Part shown: positions 20-16,052 of the stretch, one piece after another
Position numbering within the stretch: the first letter of the stretch is position 1
Layout: each line of letters starts with the position of its first letter
Virus record (IMG/VR): IMGVR_UViG_3300045988_092011
Length of the DNA: 16,052 nucleotides
DNA from: a virus
Taxonomy: Duplodnaviria; Heunggongvirae; Uroviricota; Caudoviricetes
Direction: 5' to 3' (one strand)
The notes under the pieces: model-generated
The model's database searches: none
The model's input: only the letters and a program-made list of their open reading frames with translations
What the model was told of the DNA's origin: nothing
Made by a program: the position numbers and the translations under genes

Positions 20-1102
20 TCATAGTCCAATACGGCGTAATGCGTTTCCCTCTGGGCAGGAGCTTAGCCAATCCAAGTTCTTGGGAACAAGGTCAGGGAT
101 TTCACGTAATGCAAGTGCTGCGCCAACAGCGAGAGATTCGAATCTAACTCGAGGTGTAGATTTTGCAGTAATAGTTTTCTTGAATCCTGCTGGGAAATAG
201 TTATCAACAAAAGATAGAACATTAGCAAACTCTTGTTTCATTGAGTTTTGTTTAGTTTCGTCTATATCTCGATTTTCTAACATATAGTCATTTAGAAAAT
301 CCCGTACGGAATGATCAAAGTTCTTGTACTTATCTAAGTAGGCAAAGAATCTTAATGTAAATTCTAACCGTTCATCTCGTTTTTCTTTAGTCTGAGATAA
401 AGGTGCTAATTCTTTAAATTTAGGTATTGTTGAGCATGGCTTAATAACCTGTGTATATAAATTTGTTGAACCAAGTTCTGATCCTTTACGGACTTCCATA
501 TCTTTCAATATATCGCTGCCAGAGTTAATACGTTCAAAAAGATCTCTACGGGTTTCTTCATTGCATTTAGAACTCAATTCTATAACGCGGACAGGAATTC
601 TCATGAAACGACGTTGACGTGATAATGGTAAATCTTGGAATTTGAAACCATTAAGGGCGTCTAAAGATTTCAGATCTTGTAAAACTAATTCATTTTGGAT
701 AAAAGCGTGTATAGTCCTAACTCGCTGTGAGCCATCAACAATCTCAATTCGCCCATCTAAATCGGGATCTTCGGAGAGAACATCTGCTGTAAATATATAT
801 GGTATAGGAAAACCCAAAATCAAAGACTCTATCAATCTTGATTGTCTTTTTTCACTCCAAACAAAATCCCTTTGATAATCAGGAACAAAGAGTTCGTTAG
901 TATCATCCTCTAATCCGCTATGATACTTATTAACTAATAACTCAACGGTAAATTCTTTGGTCTCAAAATCCACATCCTTTTGCTCAGCACGAATTTGCTC
1001 TTCAGCGTTTTGCTTTATCACCTCTAGCTGAGCAAGCAACTCTGCTCTTTTCTTGGCATTATCTTCATTTTCTAGTTGAGATTTTAAATCAATAATGTCC
1101 AT
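20..1102 (-). CDS. DUF262 / ParB-like nuclease-domain protein (GmrS-like N-terminal domain family); candidate anti-phage defence protein
   Basis: 366-aa ORF; start trimmed from TTG at 1120 to ATG at 1102 (MDIIDLK...), which is preceded by AGGGAG with a 6-nt spacer. Motifs PDYQRDFVW...LILGFPIPYIF...IVDGSQRVRTI match the DUF262 hallmark (QR..W and DGQQR-like). About 25-33% GC in the body versus 55-60% in the flanking phage genes. Sits in the old/tin slot beside cos. Confidence 0.75.
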   Translation of the reverse strand: MDIIDLKSQLENEDNAKKRAELLAQLEVIKQNAEEQIRAEQKDVDFETKEFTVELLVNKYHSGLEDDTNELFVPDYQRDFVWSEKRQSRLIESLILGFPIPYIFTADVLSEDPDLDGRIEIVDGSQRVRTIHAFIQNELVLQDLKSLDALNGFKFQDLPLSRQRRFMRIPVRVIELSSKCNEETRRDLFERINSGSDILKDMEVRKGSELGSTNLYTQVIKPCSTIPKFKELAPLSQTKEKRDERLEFTLRFFAYLDKYKNFDHSVRDFLNDYMLENRDIDETKQNSMKQEFANVLSFVDNYFPAGFKKTITAKSTPRVRFESLAVGAALALREIPDLVPKNLDWLSSCPEGNALRRIGL

Positions 1103-1287
1103 GTCTAGCTCCCTTAACAAGTGTTAAAAATTGAAGCGGATAGCATACCGCATAGATCATGAAAAATGCCATCATGTGCATGGATTTGCATGCGTCAGAA
1201 GTCGCTTTTATTGTTAGTTATCACTAGCGATGGTGTGCTCTTGGAGTGTTCATGCAACTGCATTAAAAACGCCCCATGAAGCGGGCG

Positions 1288-10722: not shown

Positions 10723-11358
10723 ATGAACACTCTCGCAAATATCCAGGAACTCGCGCGCGCACTGCGCAACATGATCCGCACCGGCCTTGTCGTCGAAACC
10801 AACCTTAAAGCCGGTCGCTGCCGTGTGCAGACCGGCGGCATGTGCACCGACTGGCTTCAGTGGCTGACCTGTCGTGCCGGGCGTTCGCGCACATGGTGGG
10901 CACCTTCCGTGGGGGAGCAGGTGCTGATTCTGGCCGTGGGCGGTGAACTTGACACGGCGTTTGTTCTGCCGGGGATTTATTCCGGCGATAACCCCGCGCC
11001 GTCTGCGTCGGCGGATGCCCTGCATATCCGTTTCCCTGACGGGGCGGTGATTGAGTATGAACCCGAAACCAGTGCACTCACGGTAAGCGGAATTAAAACG
11101 GCCAGCGTGACGGCTTCTGATTCTGTTACTGCCACGGTGCCGGTGGTCATGGTGAAAGCATCAACCCGCATCACCCTGGACACACCGGAGGTGGTCTGCA
11201 CCAACAGGCTGATTACCGGCACGCTGGAAGTGCGGAAGGGCGGGACGATGCGCGGCAACATTGAACACACCGGCGGTGAACTCTCATCAAACGGTAAGGT
11301 ACTGCATACCCATAAACACCCCGGCGACAGCGGCGGCACAACCGGGAGCCCTCTATGA
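10723..11358 (+). CDS. V: baseplate spike / assembly protein (P2 gpV-like)
   Basis: 211 aa; position and length match P2 V. Confidence 0.9.
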   Translation: MNTLANIQELARALRNMIRTGLVVETNLKAGRCRVQTGGMCTDWLQWLTCRAGRSRTWWAPSVGEQVLILAVGGELDTAFVLPGIYSGDNPAPSASADALHIRFPDGAVIEYEPETSALTVSGIKTASVTASDSVTATVPVVMVKASTRITLDTPEVVCTNRLITGTLEVRKGGTMRGNIEHTGGELSSNGKVLHTHKHPGDSGGTTGSPL

Positions 11359-11706: not shown

Positions 11707-12615
11707 ATGCCGATTATCGACCTGAACCAGCTACCCGCACCGGATGTGGTCGAGGAGCTGGACTTTGAAACCATTCTTGCCGAACGCAAGGCGACACTGA
11801 TTTCCCTTTACCCGGAAGACCAGCAGGAGGCGGTCGCCCGTACCCTGACGCTGGAATCTGAGCCTCTCGTCAAACTGCTGGAGGAAAATGCTTATCGTGA
11901 GCTTATCTGGCGTCAGCGTGTGAATGAGGCTGCACGGGCGGTGATGCTGGCCTGTGCCGCCGGTAATGACCTTGATGTGATTGGTGCCAATTACAACACC
12001 ACACGCCTGATTATCACCCCGGCAGATGATTCGACCCTCCCGCCGACACCGGCCGTGATGGAATCTGACACCGATTATCGTCTGCGTATTCAGCAGGCGT
12101 TTGAAGGTTTAAGCGTCGCCGGGTCGGTGGGGGCCTATCAGTATCATGGTCGAAGTGCCGACGGGCGTGTCGCAGATATCTCTGTCACCAGTCCTTCTCC
12201 GGCCTGCGTCACCATCTCTGTGCTGTCACGTGAAAATAACGGTGTGGCATCCGAAGACCTGCTGGCGGTGGTGCGCAACGCCCTTAATGGTGAGGACGTC
12301 AGACCGGTGGCCGACCGCGTGACCGTGCAGTCTGCCGCCATCGTTGAATACCAGATAAACGCCACGCTTTACCTTTACCCTGGCCCCGAAAGCGAACCCA
12401 TCCGCGCTGCTGCCGTGAAAAAACTGGAAGCGTACATCACGGCACAACACCGGCTGGGGCGTGACATCCGTCTGTCTGCCATTTATGCCGCTTTGCATGT
12501 GGAAGGCGTGCAGCGTGTCGAGCTGGCCGCACCACTGGCCGACATCGTGCTCAACAATACGCAGGCGTCTTTCTGTACCGAATACCGCGTCGTGACCGGA
12601 GGCTCGGATGAGTGA
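11707..12615 (+). CDS. J: baseplate protein (P2 gpJ-like)
   Basis: 302 aa; position and length match P2 J. Confidence 0.9.
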   Translation: MPIIDLNQLPAPDVVEELDFETILAERKATLISLYPEDQQEAVARTLTLESEPLVKLLEENAYRELIWRQRVNEAARAVMLACAAGNDLDVIGANYNTTRLIITPADDSTLPPTPAVMESDTDYRLRIQQAFEGLSVAGSVGAYQYHGRSADGRVADISVTSPSPACVTISVLSRENNGVASEDLLAVVRNALNGEDVRPVADRVTVQSAAIVEYQINATLYLYPGPESEPIRAAAVKKLEAYITAQHRLGRDIRLSAIYAALHVEGVQRVELAAPLADIVLNNTQASFCTEYRVVTGGSDE

Positions 12616-13138
12616 TTCGCGACTGCTGCCGACCGGCTCATCACCGCTTGAAGTTGCCGCCGCAAAAGCCTGTGCGGAAATTGAAAAGACACCGGTCAGG
12701 ATTCGTGAGCTGTGGAACCCGGACACCTGCCCGGCAAATCTGCTGCCGTGGCTGGCGTGGGCGTTTTCGGTCGACAGGTGGGATGAAAAGTGGCCGGAAG
12801 CGACAAAACGCGCCGTTATCCGCGATGCCTATTTCATCCACTGTCATAAAGGCACTATAGGTGCAATCCGGCGTGTGGTGGAGCCGCTGGGCTATCTCAT
12901 CAACGTGACGGAGTGGTGGGAAACCAGTGACCCGCCGGGCACCTTCCGGCTTGATATTGGTGTACTGGAAAGCGGCATCACAGAGGCAATGTATCAGGAA
13001 ATGGAACGGCTGATTGCTGATGCCAAACCTGCAAGCCGCCACCTTATTGGCCTGAACATTACCCGGGACATTCCCGGCTACTTGTTCGCCGGTGGTGTGG
13101 CTTATGACGGCGATGTAATTACGGTTTACCCAGGATAA
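12608..13138 (+). CDS. I: baseplate protein (P2 gpI-like)
   Basis: 176 aa; GGAGG upstream; overlaps the J 3' end by 8 nt. Confidence 0.9.
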   Translation: MSDSRLLPTGSSPLEVAAAKACAEIEKTPVRIRELWNPDTCPANLLPWLAWAFSVDRWDEKWPEATKRAVIRDAYFIHCHKGTIGAIRRVVEPLGYLINVTEWWETSDPPGTFRLDIGVLESGITEAMYQEMERLIADAKPASRHLIGLNITRDIPGYLFAGGVAYDGDVITVYPG

Positions 13139-13148
13139 GTGAGGAATA

Positions 13149-15398
13149 ATGAGCACAAAATTCAGAACCGTTATCACCACTGCCGGTGCAGCAAAGCTGG
13201 CAGCGGCAACCGCACCGGGAGGGCGGAAGGTCAACATTACCACGATGGCCGTCGGGGATGGCGGTGGTAAATTGCCTGTCCCGGATGCCGGACAGACCGG
13301 GCTTATCCATGAAGTCTGGCGACATGCGCTGAACAAAATCAGCCAGGACAAACGAAACAGTAATTATATTATCGCAGAGCTGGTTATTCCGCCGGAGGTG
13401 GGCGGTTTCTGGATGCGTGAGCTTGGCCTGTACGATGATGCGGGAACGTTAATTGCTGTGGCGAACATGGCCGAAAGTTATAAGCCTGCCCTTGCCGAAG
13501 GCTCAGGGCGTTCGCAGACCTGCCGCATGGTCATCATCGTCAGCAGTGTGGCCTCAGTGGAGCTGACCATTGACACCACAACGGTGATGGCGACGCAGGA
13601 TTACGTTGATGACAAAATTGCAGAGCACGAACAGTCACGACGTCACCCGGACGCCTCGCTGACCGCAAAAGGTTTTACTCAGTTAAGCAGTGCGACCAAC
13701 AGCACGTCTGAAACACTGGCCGCAACGCCGAAAGCGGTAAAGGCCGCTTATGATCTTGCTAACGGGAAATATACCGCGCAGGATGCCACCACAGCGCGAA
13801 AAGGCCTTGTCCAGCTCAGTAGCGCCACCAATAGCGATTCTGAAACGCTCGCCGCAACGCCGAAAGCGGTAAAGGCAGCATATGACCTTGCTAACGGGAA
13901 ATACACTGCACAGGACGCCACCACAACGCGAAAAGGCCTTGTTCAGCTCAGTAGCGCCACCAACAGCGATTCTGAAACGCTTGCGGCAACGCCAAAGGCG
14001 GTTAAGACAGCATATGACCTTGCTAACGGGAAATACACTGCACAGGATGCCACCACGGCGCGAAAAGGTCTTGTCCAGCTCAGTAGCGCCACCAACAGTG
14101 ATTCTGAAACGCAGGCTGCAACGCCAAAGGCGGTGAAGTCTGCCTATGACAATGCTGAAAAACGTCTTCAGAAAGATCAGAACGGTGCGGATATCCCTGA
14201 TAAAGAACGCTTCCTGAGTAACATTAATGTTTACAGCAAAGGTGAAGTGGATAAGAAAAAGGGAATGCGAAAGTATTCGTTTGCAGCCCCTGCAAATGTC
14301 GTTGCCGGGAAGTGGTACCCCGTTATCTTTCGCCGTGCTGCCAGCTTTTCAGGAGAAATGGCATCCCGCGTTGTTATTTCCACTGGTTGTTATAACGGCG
14401 ATTATGTAATGAATAACTGCGAGTTTAATGGCATGGTTATGCCCGGAGGCTGGACTGATCGTGGTTCATATGCGGCAGGTTATTTCTGGACGTATCAGAC
14501 TAATGAGCGTTCAATCCATTCCATTGTTACAAGCCTGAAAGATGATGATGTATGTAGTGTTTTTTATGTTGAAGCCAGAGCTTTCCCTGTACAAATTCTT
14601 GCAGAGGAAGGGCTAACGGTTATTGTTCCGACAGAGGATTATGTCGTCGGTCAAACGACATATAAGTGGGGGGCAACTAATCCCGCTACAGAAAGCACGA
14701 ACGCACAGGCTATTCTGGATTTTAAAAATGGGCGCGGTTATTACTGCTCACATCCATTTATTTCCAGCCTTTCAGGAAATGCTGCAACAGCAACGAAGTT
14801 AGCGAATGCAAGAAATATTAATGGTGTCAGATTTGATGGTTCTGCCGATATAAATATTAATACACTGGTATCCAGAAACCGTGTTACTGCATTAGGTGGG
14901 AGCTCAAAGGGTACACCAGGTATTCAGATGTATGAGGCATACAACAATGGCTACCCAACAGCCTATGGTAATGTGCTTCATCTCACTGGCGTAACTGCAG
15001 TAGGAGAGGGTGAGTTACTTATTGGCTGGAGTGGAACCAGCGGTGCTCATGCTCCGGCATATATTCGCTCCCGACGAGATACCACAGATGCTAACTGGTC
15101 TGGATGGGCGCAACTATATACAACTGCTCATAAACCCTCAGCGGGAGATGTTGGTGCATACACCAAAGCTGAGTCAGATTCACGTTATGTGAGAGACATG
15201 CGGCTGGGCGGTGCATCTACATATAAACCAGCAAATAATGGTATTACATGGACGCATCAGGCTCCGTCAGGTTGCGTATATACCGGCATTATTGTTCAGG
15301 ATACCGGCTCAAACTCTGCCGATAACATTGGTGGCGTATATTACAGACCGGTGCAGAAATACATTAACGGGACATGGTATAACGTGGCGCAGGTATAA
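13149..15398 (+). CDS. H: tail fibre protein (P2 gpH-like) with an internal tandem repeat array and a divergent AT-rich distal (receptor-binding) region
   Basis: 749 aa; GAGG upstream. N-terminus is P2 H-like, the middle carries 44-aa repeats, and the C-terminal region contains a GNAATATKLANARNINGVRFDGSADI motif that I recall from Mu S / lambda Stf-type side tail fibres. Confidence 0.92.
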   Translation: MSTKFRTVITTAGAAKLAAATAPGGRKVNITTMAVGDGGGKLPVPDAGQTGLIHEVWRHALNKISQDKRNSNYIIAELVIPPEVGGFWMRELGLYDDAGTLIAVANMAESYKPALAEGSGRSQTCRMVIIVSSVASVELTIDTTTVMATQDYVDDKIAEHEQSRRHPDASLTAKGFTQLSSATNSTSETLAATPKAVKAAYDLANGKYTAQDATTARKGLVQLSSATNSDSETLAATPKAVKAAYDLANGKYTAQDATTTRKGLVQLSSATNSDSETLAATPKAVKTAYDLANGKYTAQDATTARKGLVQLSSATNSDSETQAATPKAVKSAYDNAEKRLQKDQNGADIPDKERFLSNINVYSKGEVDKKKGMRKYSFAAPANVVAGKWYPVIFRRAASFSGEMASRVVISTGCYNGDYVMNNCEFNGMVMPGGWTDRGSYAAGYFWTYQTNERSIHSIVTSLKDDDVCSVFYVEARAFPVQILAEEGLTVIVPTEDYVVGQTTYKWGATNPATESTNAQAILDFKNGRGYYCSHPFISSLSGNAATATKLANARNINGVRFDGSADININTLVSRNRVTALGGSSKGTPGIQMYEAYNNGYPTAYGNVLHLTGVTAVGEGELLIGWSGTSGAHAPAYIRSRRDTTDANWSGWAQLYTTAHKPSAGDVGAYTKAESDSRYVRDMRLGGASTYKPANNGITWTHQAPSGCVYTGIIVQDTGSNSADNIGGVYYRPVQKYINGTWYNVAQV
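13668..14150 (+). repeat. in-frame tandem repeat, 132-bp unit (44 aa), about 3.7 copies inside H
   Basis: Copies at 13668-13799, 13800-13931, 13932-14063 and a partial copy 14064 to about 14150. Each encodes KGLVQLSSATNSDSETLAATPKAVKAAYDLANGKYTAQDATTAR with small variations. Copies 2 and 3 differ at about 11 of 132 nt, mostly synonymous. Confidence 0.9.
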
Positions 15399-15401
15399 TT
15401 T

Positions 15402-15929
15402 ATGCAGCATTTAAAAAATATTACGGCGGGTAATCCAAAAACGGTTGAACAATATCAATTGACAAAGGACTTTGATGTTGTCTGGTTTTTTTCAGAAGAT
15501 GGTAAGAACTGGTACGAAGAACAAAAGTATTTTGCTGATGACACGATAAAAATAGCGTACGACAAAGATAATATTATCCGCTATGTGGAAAAGGATGTGA
15601 CAGCTATAAGACCGGATGGATTAAGTGTGGTTGAAGTGGCGGATATTACTGCTAACCGACGGGCGGACATTTCAGGGAACTGGATGTTTAAGGATGGCAA
15701 AGTGATTAAACGCATTTATACGGCAGAGGAATTGCAGCAGCAGGCAGAAAACCGGAAAGCCAGACTTCTTGCAGATGCTGAATCCGTGATTTTGCCGCTG
15801 GAGCGCGCTGTCAGGTTGAACATGGCAACAGAGGAGGAGCGCACACGGCTGGAGGCTTGGGAACGCTACAGCGTTGTGGTCAGTCGTGTGGATCCTGCAA
15901 ATCCTGAATGGCCGGAAATGCCGCAATAA
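15402..15929 (+). CDS. G: tail fibre assembly chaperone (P2 gpG-like, Tfa family)
   Basis: 175 aa immediately downstream of H; AT-rich 5' two-thirds and a more GC-rich 3' third; length matches P2 G. Confidence 0.88.
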
Positions 15930-16004: not shown

Positions 16005-16052
16005 AGGAGCGGAAGTTGCCAAGAGAACTCTTGCAAAGGTATGATAACGTAG

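Follow-up and report, generated by a model that had tools for sequence, protein, structure and literature searches.

The presence of several nearly identical coding units within a phage tail fibre gene raises the question of what their number means: are the units of gene H old or newly duplicated, is their number held by selection, and what would they contribute to the fibre? The account that we consider very probable as a whole is that the units belong to the PF03406 repeat family and would form a fibre shaft, that the repeat peptide is under purifying selection, that the unit types are old, and that the array evolves by recombination, with copy number altering fibre reach additively.

Gene H and its repeat array

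Within the window (the whole stretch of 16,052 nucleotides analysed here), gene H is an ORF on the + strand (13149-15398) encoding a P2-type tail fibre protein of 749 aa, with 96% identity to P2 H over its first 726 nt and 100% identity to a CDS annotated as 'tail fiber protein' in the chromosome of E. coli O169:H41 2014EL-1345-2. The gene occupies the fifth place of a V-W-J-I-H-G operon (ORFs at 10723, 11355, 11707, 12608, 13149 and 15402), in which the V, W, J, I and G ORFs have the same lengths as those of P2. Gene I (12608-13138, + strand) encodes the fibre-holding wedge protein of the baseplate (PF09684 Tail_P2_I, E 8e-56), and gene G (15402-15929, + strand) encodes the tail fibre assembly chaperone (PF02413 Caudo_TAP, E 3.9e-34), in agreement with the position and length of P2 G. 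The N-terminal baseplate-adaptor domain of H (aa 1-151; 13149-13601, + strand) matches PF12571 Phage_tail_fib with an E of 1.6e-58 and is followed by a linker and helix that run to aa 173. On the basis of this adaptor domain and the late-operon position, H is a P2-type (Peduovirus) gpH and the host element is a P2-like prophage. The distal receptor-binding part (14229-15398 including the stop codon, + strand) is similar to P2 H only at aa 677-749 by BLASTP. Residues 638-748 match the PDB entries 8ju3, 5yvq and 9cuy, and the distal tip is similar to Mu S/S' and to a phage short tail fibre.

The repeats lie between these two parts of the protein. Tandem Repeats Finder reports a single array at 13695-14150, with a period of 132, 3.5 copies, 89% matches, no indels and a score of 688, and the protein register set by KG[FL]xQLSS gives 3.66 units within 13668-14150, that is, three full units of 132 bp and one truncated unit in an array of 483 bp. 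All four lie on the + strand. Unit 1 (13668-13799, aa 174-217) begins KGFTQLSS, is of positional type 1 and is common to P2; unit 2 (13800-13931, aa 218-261) is a chimera of a type-3 5' third and a type-2 remainder; and unit 3 (13932-14063, aa 262-305) is of positional type 3. Unit 4 (14064-14150), the last in the array, is a truncated core of 29-31 aa (KGLVQLSSATNSDSETQAATPKAVKSAYD). It resembles the others for approximately 29-31 codons from 14064, ending at about 14150-14156, and an HMM of the unit aligns aa 306-336 with profile positions 1-31. Each unit consists of a 27-residue core (KGxxQLSSATxSxSETLAATPKAVKxA) and a 17-residue connector, with the final unit reduced to the core, and a terminal partial unit of ~27-36 aa is found in the array of every relative. 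The array is already known as the 'phage tail fibre repeat' of Pfam PF03406 (Phage_fiber_2), which has four matches in H (269.2 bits against a curated cut-off of 22, E 6.9e-82), and the four-unit form is an ordinary, previously described variant.

Between units 2 and 3 there are 11 differences in 132 nucleotides and 2 in 44 residues, with nine changes synonymous and two non-synonymous (dS 0.34, dN 0.02, dN/dS 0.06); the probability of at least 9 synonymous changes among 11 under neutrality is 1.3e-4. These values agree with the first-pass annotation, which had described ~3.7 tandem 44-aa units with near-identical peptides and had put copies 2 and 3 at ~11 of 132 nucleotides and one or two residues apart; the unit peptides also agree with the consensus given there. 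Unit 1 is 24-26 nt and 4 aa away from units 2 and 3 (dN/dS 0.08-0.10), and of the minor alleles that 56 loci show within the array, 121 of 161 are synonymous. The repeat peptide is thus under strong purifying selection (dN/dS 0.06-0.10 between full units), and it is for this reason that the paralogous units diverge mainly at synonymous sites.

Old unit types and exchange between units

The unit types predate the diversification of the E. coli Peduovirus H genes. In 56 four-unit relatives, units at the same position differ between loci at 4-7 of 93 nt, and units at different positions within a locus differ at 11-23 of 93 nt. In P2, unit 1 is present together with 25 codons from the start of unit 2, and P2 unit 1 shows no differences from the type-1 consensus over the first 75 nt; unit 1 of the window differs from the same consensus (56 loci) at few sites. 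A fresh duplication as the origin of the window array is rejected by these position-specific units across the 56 relatives, and the earlier view that the array is not newly duplicated is borne out both by this positional identity and by the presence of unit 1 and part of unit 2 in P2.

Positional identity coexists with exchange between neighbouring units. Contiguous patches pass between units 2 and 3, and unit 2 of the window is a chimera, with the diagnostic-site pattern '33332222222', in which type-3 bases at sites 24 and 37-39 are followed by type-2 bases; the closest unit 2 in the other 55 four-unit loci is still 3.8% of sites away. Contiguous type-2/type-3 tracts are found in many loci, with 58 switches of state against 100.7 in shuffled data, and 54 against 82.5 once one codon is merged; in both cases none of 10,000 shuffles was as low. 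Unit sites that differ between paralogues are polymorphic in 69% of cases, against 16% elsewhere, and 75 of 91 minor alleles at such sites are the base of the paralogue, although this statistic is inflated, as third-codon sites are the likeliest both to differ between paralogues and to be polymorphic. The units have a nucleotide diversity of 5.6-7.3%, against 1.8% for the N-terminal domain, a three- to fourfold difference. Over longer times the units homogenise within genera, by concerted evolution: Buttiauxella units are 4-10 of 75 nt apart within an array and 18-23 from E. coli units, and the residues SEVL are present in all four Buttiauxella units.

Homologous recombination between misaligned units accounts for these patterns, and neighbouring units share exact in-register tracts (40, 26, 26 and 23 bp) on which it could act. 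Such recombination leads to gain or loss of whole internal units, giving the 2, 3, 4 or 5 units of close relatives, to patchy conversion of units 2 and 3 by one another and, over longer times, to homogenisation of all units of a lineage. The array offers a compact picture of the evolution of a coding tandem repeat, with positional identity in the short term, internal conversion together with gain and loss, and homogenisation in the long term. Taken alone, the finding matters little, as Pfam already has a curated family for the repeat, and sequenced phages have the same four-unit fibre.

Proposed exchange of distal modules beside the array

The array is followed by a conserved junction (14151-14228, + strand; NAEKRLQKDQNGADIPDKERFLSNIN) that is common to phage Mu S, of which aa 99-173 align with H aa 288-362. 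When H is aligned with Mu S and with two further distal clusters, identity ceases at approximately column 160, and homology among distal clusters ends just past NGADIP..NI(G/N), which is the position annotated as the G-segment boundary in Mu. At this point the window contains a remnant of an inversion crossover site (14211-14239, + strand; TTCCTGAGTAACATTAATGTTTACAGCAA), which aligns with Mu TTATCCAAAACCTCGGTTTACAGGAA, a sequence at the G-segment boundary that we take, from the boundary annotation, to be the one named gix. Only one half of a complete Mu-type crossover site, GTTTACAG..AA, is retained. Distal modules would thus be swapped downstream of the array at a Mu-like NGADIP...NI(G/N) junction.

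Mu S (gp49; PDB 5yvq, 9ki1, 8ju3) resembles H in having the repeat core, at aa 117-143, followed by the NGADIP junction, in its related C-terminal tip and in a variable part that starts at the homologous position, the G-segment boundary. It differs in having one unit only and another N-terminal attachment domain, and in the switching of its distal part by Gin-mediated inversion, of which the window keeps the half-site remnant; no inverted second gene set is present within the window, which stops 123 nt past G (at 16052). In PDB sequence searches with whole H and with a 15-unit profile, the motif was carried by Mu S only; the Mu paper mentions 'the N-terminus' as having been built. The fibre proteins of Peduovirus P22H4 and Escherichia phage 9W (748 aa) have four units and the same distal shaft as H, with 96.7% nt identity over H nt 1-1643, but their unit 2 is pure type 2 where that of the window is a type-3/type-2 chimera, and they differ in the region at about aa 540-650, before the tip. 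Lambda Stf and the collagen-like fibre proteins of EHEC prophages ('Pf2' domain) share the ~40-residue PF03406 motif, which the literature describes as a repeat conserved in the side tail fibres of phages. Their units sit between collagen or coiled-coil segments, whereas those of H adjoin the P2-type adaptor.

Given this distribution, the array could serve mainly as a shared block of homology, or recombination adaptor, for the swapping of distal modules among P2, Mu, P1 and lambda-like fibres, with change in copy number a by-product. P2-type and Mu-type distal parts do join the array at one point of the unit, after TPKAVK; Mu S has its single unit, and its alignment to H runs through NGADIP and beyond; the repeat occurs also in Stf-type fibres; and the diversity of the units exceeds that of the N-terminal domain, as given above. 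Megablast homology breaks inside the array, at query positions 726, 805, 854 and 870, and further breaks lie at or just past its end, at 990 and 1046-1049. However, the NGADIP-type fibres, which are the majority, swap ~75 nt downstream of the array and not inside it, and the strong conservation of the peptide points to a structural role beyond DNA homology. We regard such a primary role as a real possibility, if somewhat less probable than its opposite, and one that complements the recombining shaft proposed here more than it competes with it.

Copy number and shaft length

The structural setting of the array comes mainly from P2. In a P2 cryo-EM preprint, the P2 fibre is described as an adaptor, 'two repeat domains (RBPseg-D19)' and distal domains, with a length of ~54 nm, and the repeat domains are placed in the proximal fibre shaft by an AF3-based model. 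According to the same preprint, the trimer of gpH is joined to the C-terminus of gpI, and the gpH N-terminal domain binds gpI; for P2, the retracted fibre is also reported to dock its distal anchor on the sheath lattice. Class D19, to which the preprint thus assigns both repeat domains of P2, is located by the RBPseg paper in T4 gp34-like (proximal) fibres, in regions that it likens in structure to the short tail fibre of T4; a PDB profile search with the 15-unit profile gave no sequence match to T4 proteins. An AlphaFold2 monomer of H (aa 1-353, 42-sequence alignment) is confident for the N-terminal domain (pLDDT 74-95), and the repeats (aa 161-325) reach a pLDDT of only 27-45, too low for use of the fold. 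The array would accordingly be expected to form the proximal shaft of trimeric gpH, with the gpI-attaching N-terminal domain on one side of it and the exchangeable distal receptor-binding part on the other. One unit would add one structural module of ~3-4 nm, assuming fibre length to be spread evenly over residues, and it is plausible, by inference from this model, that copy number sets shaft length, each unit lengthening it; both the per-unit length and the trimeric fold rest on the AF3-based model of the preprint and on arithmetic.

Comparison with P2 gpH (AF063097) is consistent with a contribution of the array to length. The lengths of 749 aa for H and 669 aa for P2 H given in the first-pass annotation are both correct (+80 aa in the window). 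The two proteins share the V-W-J-I-H-G operon; the stretch made up of the adaptor, unit 1 and residues 1-25 of unit 2 is collinear in both, with 96% aa identity over aa 1-242, and their tips, the last ~73 aa (aa 677-749 of H), are 45% identical. P2 gpH differs in having two repeat cores against four and, past TPKAVK of unit 2, an unrelated shaft (TVMDETNKKAPLNSPALTG...), such that residues 252-604 of P2 H and 337-676 of H in the window are non-homologous (-8 aa). The array contributes +88 aa to the difference of +80 aa. The proposal that the gap is close to two units thus holds for the count (2 against 4, +88 aa), and the length difference does not lie outside the array, but the closeness of the total is partly coincidental, given the -8 aa of the unrelated distal part.

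Among relatives the array has 1-5 units; only individually verified loci are cited for each copy number, as classes of megablast coverage become ambiguous where repeats misalign. The distal domain of the window occurs, at 98.4% aa identity, with five units in a protein of 793 aa in the complete genome of E. coli EH01-18-02, and with three units in a protein of 705 aa in the complete genome of PapRG-06-3. Units 3 and 4 of EH01-18-02 are 1 of 132 nt apart and are a fresh duplication. Two complete genomes match the five-unit query at 99.9% identity, and it is therefore unlikely that the three- and five-unit variants are assembly errors. Propagated phages have two units (P2, P2_AC1), three (Yersinia phage P37, PSP3) or four (P22H4). 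Five-unit arrays read 1-2-3-3-4 or 1-2-2'-3-4 and three-unit arrays 1-2-4; unit 3 is the copy doubled in most five-unit relatives and absent from three-unit relatives. The total length of H ranges from 505 to 874 aa and correlates with copy number (rho 0.57), and compensation of length, with more units accompanied by a shorter distal part, is ruled out (rho -0.04, p 0.82). Full-text literature searches found no earlier account of variable copy number for this repeat among P2-like phages.

These data bear on the suggestion that four units are an old state kept by selection, the length of the shaft having to be fixed. Four is the commonest number, in 55 of 100 complete H genes of an E. coli-type sample and across at least six distal clusters, although this is not a population estimate, as the loci are non-independent and many of the IMG/VR entries are near-identical prophages from draft assemblies; the unit types are also kept by position. 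Nevertheless, one distal type is found with three, four and five units, viable phages have two, three or four, H varies widely in length with no compensation by the distal part, and one complete genome contains a fresh duplication. In addition, the mode has a simpler explanation in the linkage of the array, upstream of the swap junction, to the conserved N-terminal part: four units would be the commonest count if the array travels with this 'constant' part, as we infer. Selection for a fixed length is thus unlikely, and the first-pass claim that repeat number is selectively maintained is not upheld, although some selection could still lie behind the prevalence of four units in six distal types. 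In the account favoured here, copy number would instead alter fibre reach additively within a tolerated range.

A stronger functional reading is that repeat number is not neutral variation and serves as a tuning knob, either for reach matched to sheath layers or as a fast-switching host-range trait; we consider this improbable, and slightly more so than selection for a fixed length. Contractile tails rise by roughly 4 nm per sheath layer. A 54-nm P2 fibre spread evenly over 669 residues gives ~3.6 nm per unit, and on this estimate a unit of ~44 residues may add about one sheath-layer rise. If so, fibres of 2-5 units would still dock on the sheath lattice and reach different depths of O-antigen or capsule. 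In the second version, gain and loss driven by recombination would make host range or adsorption a fast-switching trait in prophage populations. The natural occurrence of one receptor-binding type with three, four and five units is useful for the engineering of P2 and tailocin fibres, since the shaft appears to tolerate changes in length.

It is a still weaker proposition that the synonymous differences were themselves selected as 'recoding' that lowers recombination or slippage between units and so stabilises the array. Such a process would fit the overwhelmingly synonymous nature of the inter-unit differences and the limit of 26 bp on in-register exact tracts between unit 1 and any other unit. 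It is very improbable, however, as exact tracts of 23 to 40 bp persist between units, conversion tracts and gains and losses of units are common, and purifying selection on the protein together with time suffices for the pattern. An assembly artefact or chance similarity is refuted, with practically no probability remaining, by the TRF score, by the identical sequence in a complete chromosome, and by the four-unit arrays of phages P22H4 and 9W and of 56 further loci with position-specific differences.

For assembly and annotation, it is of use that draft genomes may break at the array, and it is partly supported that some draft assemblies do so in or beside it. The 120 best-scoring clusters of database proteins retrieved with the N-terminal domain and one unit as query do not exceed 380 aa, are annotated for the most part as 'partial' and are unusable for unit counts; 34 of the 120 stop within 15 aa of a unit.

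The repeat array of gene H

The window represents the late region of a P2-like prophage. Its ORFs at 10723, 11355, 11707, 12608 and 15402 equal P2 V, W, J, I and G in length, and genes I and G match the Pfam families Tail_P2_I and Caudo_TAP, respectively. Across the tail fibre gene H the window shows 100% identity with the chromosome of E. coli O169:H41 strain 2014EL-1345-2. Residues 1-151 of H correspond to PF12571, the tail-collar fibre N-terminal domain, and the repeat array is matched in four stretches by PF03406 (Phage_fiber_2; E 6.9e-82), so that the repeat is a curated, named family. The array is thus shown to consist of PF03406 repeats and to belong to the proximal part of the shaft of a P2-type fibre. 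The earliest description of this repeat is from side tail fibres of the lambda Stf type. A 2026 P2 cryo-EM preprint describes the P2 fibre as a gpH homotrimer of ~54 nm, whose N-terminal adaptor is gripped by gpI and whose other domains comprise 'two repeat domains (RBPseg-D19)', extension and anchor domains, a knob and a tip; domain class D19 is also present in T4 gp34-like fibres. The finding is real but ordinary, and the repeat family, the gene and the four-unit architecture were already known from databases and sequenced phages.

Tandem Repeats Finder returned a single strong array (13695-14150; period 132, 3.5 copies, 89% matches, 0 indels, score 688), lying inside the 749-codon ORF at 13149-15398 on the + strand. 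In protein register, units 1 to 4 start at 13668, 13800, 13932 and 14064 (all +), the fourth being like the others over about 29-31 codons only. Units 2 and 3 differ at 11/132 nt and 2/44 residues, with 9 synonymous and 2 nonsynonymous changes (dS 0.34, dN 0.02), a synonymous excess with a chance of 1.3e-4 under neutrality. Unit 1 is 24-26 nt but just 4 residues away from units 2 and 3 (dN/dS 0.08-0.10). These codon comparisons show purifying selection on the protein that the array encodes. Tandem Repeats Finder and the unit comparison bear out the first-pass annotation of the repeat in all details, including the peptides that it quoted. An 84-codon ORF beginning with ATG (13882-14136, +, in another frame) lies wholly inside the array and is, most likely, a side effect of the repetition.

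Copy number and fibre length

P2 gpH (669 aa) and the window H are collinear at 96% identity up to residue 242, which takes in the adaptor, all of unit 1 and 25 residues at the start of unit 2. They are divergent afterwards, and similarity returns only in the last ~73 residues (45%); in P2-type fibres the distal junction falls within unit 2, directly after TPKAVK. There are two repeat cores in P2 against four in the window H (+88 aa), as the earlier count had it; the distal part, taken to begin with the last unit, has 452 aa in P2 and 444 in the window H (-8 aa), and the sum is the +80 aa observed. The length difference therefore lies in the array, although the match of total length to repeat count is partly coincidental because the two distal shafts are mostly unrelated.

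Units were counted with an HMM built on the window's own units in 80 viral contigs whose N-terminal domains were at least 98% identical and in 23 genomes of other species. In all of these relatives the first unit began at residue 173 or 174, and the last was truncated. Of the 100 complete H genes, which are non-independent samples, four units were found in 55, two in 21, five in 10, and one and three in 7 each. Sequenced phages carry two (P2, P2_AC1), three (Yersinia phage P37, Salmonella phage PSP3) or four units (P22H4). H was 642-772 aa long with four units and 505-874 aa with one, so total length is not set by copy number alone. Across complete H genes copy number showed no correlation with distal length (rho -0.04) and a positive one with total H length (rho 0.57), and there is therefore no sign of a constant total fibre length. 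Clustering of distal parts showed that one distal type can occur with differing unit numbers. That of the window (98.4% amino acid identity over 444 aa) occurs in complete genomes with five units in E. coli EH01-18-02 (H of 793 aa, its units 3 and 4 differing at 1/132 nt) and with three in E. coli PapRG-06-3 (H of 705 aa). With one to five units in relatives, and three or five beside the window's own distal type, the earlier suggestion that the number is selectively maintained is unsupported.

Each unit may form one structural module stacked on the trimer axis, in which case fibre length would change additively with copy number and a range of lengths would be tolerated. It is plausible on this model that unit number sets shaft length. 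Spreading 54 nm over the 669 residues of P2 gives a rise of ~3.6 nm per unit, as a rough guide only; a predicted monomer model has a pLDDT of 27-45 across the array.

Several observations concern the databases themselves. Enterobacterial P2-like H genes with N-terminal domains 74-79% identical occur in records titled Vagococcus sp. WN89Y and Chryseobacterium sp. 18061 (L092 and L098), probably through assembly contamination or mislabelling. The best-scoring 120 protein clusters for the N-terminal domain (P0001-P0120) are all 212-380 aa long and mostly annotated 'partial', with no full-length H among them. In 34 of them the end is no more than 15 aa from a repeat unit, and some draft assemblies therefore probably break in or beside the array. 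In the fibre fragment P0072 (353 aa, partial) seven units were detected, in two arrays split by ...AGKAPSSHTHPWNQITGVPTASLTA..., so that the same repeat is here built into a longer and different architecture.

Age of the units and exchange between them

In 56 four-unit loci, units at the same position differ between loci at 4-7 per 93 nt and from other units of their own array at 11-23 per 93 nt. The unit types therefore predate the diversification of these prophages, and the view that the repeats are old and not fresh holds. Mapped to these positional types, five-unit arrays read 1-2-3-3-4 or 1-2-2'-3-4, three-unit arrays 1-2-4 and the P2 array 1-2(partial).

Types 2 and 3 are distinguished by 11 sites, and many loci carry contiguous blocks of the other type; unit 2 of the window is itself a chimera (3333-2222222). 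State switches numbered 58, against 100.7 in shuffles, and 54 against 82.5 when one three-base codon was merged; in neither test did any of 10,000 shuffles give so few switches, and the blocks are thus far more contiguous than shuffling yields. Sites at which paralogous units differ were polymorphic between loci in 69% of cases, against 16% of other sites, and the minor allele was the paralogue's base in 75 of 91, a figure that is inflated because both kinds of variation cluster at third-codon positions. The units have a nucleotide diversity of 5.6-7.3%, compared with 1.8% for the adjacent N-terminal domain. Exact identity in register extends up to 40 bp (units 2-3), 26 bp (1-2, 2-4) and 23 bp (3-4), and runs of 23-40 bp are sufficient for homologous recombination. 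Several of these sequence measures point to exchange between units, and the array is shown to evolve by unit gain and loss together with inter-unit conversion. In one contig (L039; IMG/VR UViG_2693429734_000004) unit 2 has all type-3 diagnostic bases and unit 3 mostly type-2 bases, and the order of the two types appears swapped. In other genera, lineage-specific residues are common to all units of an array; Buttiauxella units are 4-10/75 nt apart within the array, against 18-23/75 from E. coli units, and such similarity is a signature of concerted evolution or independent expansion.

The distal junction and cargo loci

In E. coli-type loci identity holds through the array and the NAEKRLQKDQNGADIP..F..NI(G/N) segment and collapses thereafter. 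The array is thus part of the 'constant' proximal portion of the gene, which offers a simple, non-selective reason for the occurrence of four units with several distal types. In the tail fibre protein S of phage Mu the same junction comes after a single repeat unit, and the annotated boundary of the invertible Mu G segment lies at the homologous position. The window sequence at 14211-14239, TTCCTGAGTAACATTAATGTTTACAGCAA, aligns with the Mu sequence at that boundary, TTATCCAAAACCTCGGTTTACAGGAA, presumably gix, of which it keeps only the right half. By this alignment, 14211-14239 looks like what is left of an inversion crossover site, and it lies where the distal fibre types begin to differ.

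A 366-aa ORF at 20-1120 (-) adjoins the portal gene Q (1476-2510, -) and matches the defence-system models NsnA (E 5e-54) and PD-T4-2_A (E 7e-34) and Pfam GmrSD_N (E 6e-26), and probably represents anti-phage cargo in a variable locus beside the P2 cos/Q end. Immediately downstream of G in E. coli EH01-18-02 is a gene annotated 'GapS4a family protein' (L110:5196-5860), where P2 has Z/fun, a further position at which P2-like prophages carry variable cargo.
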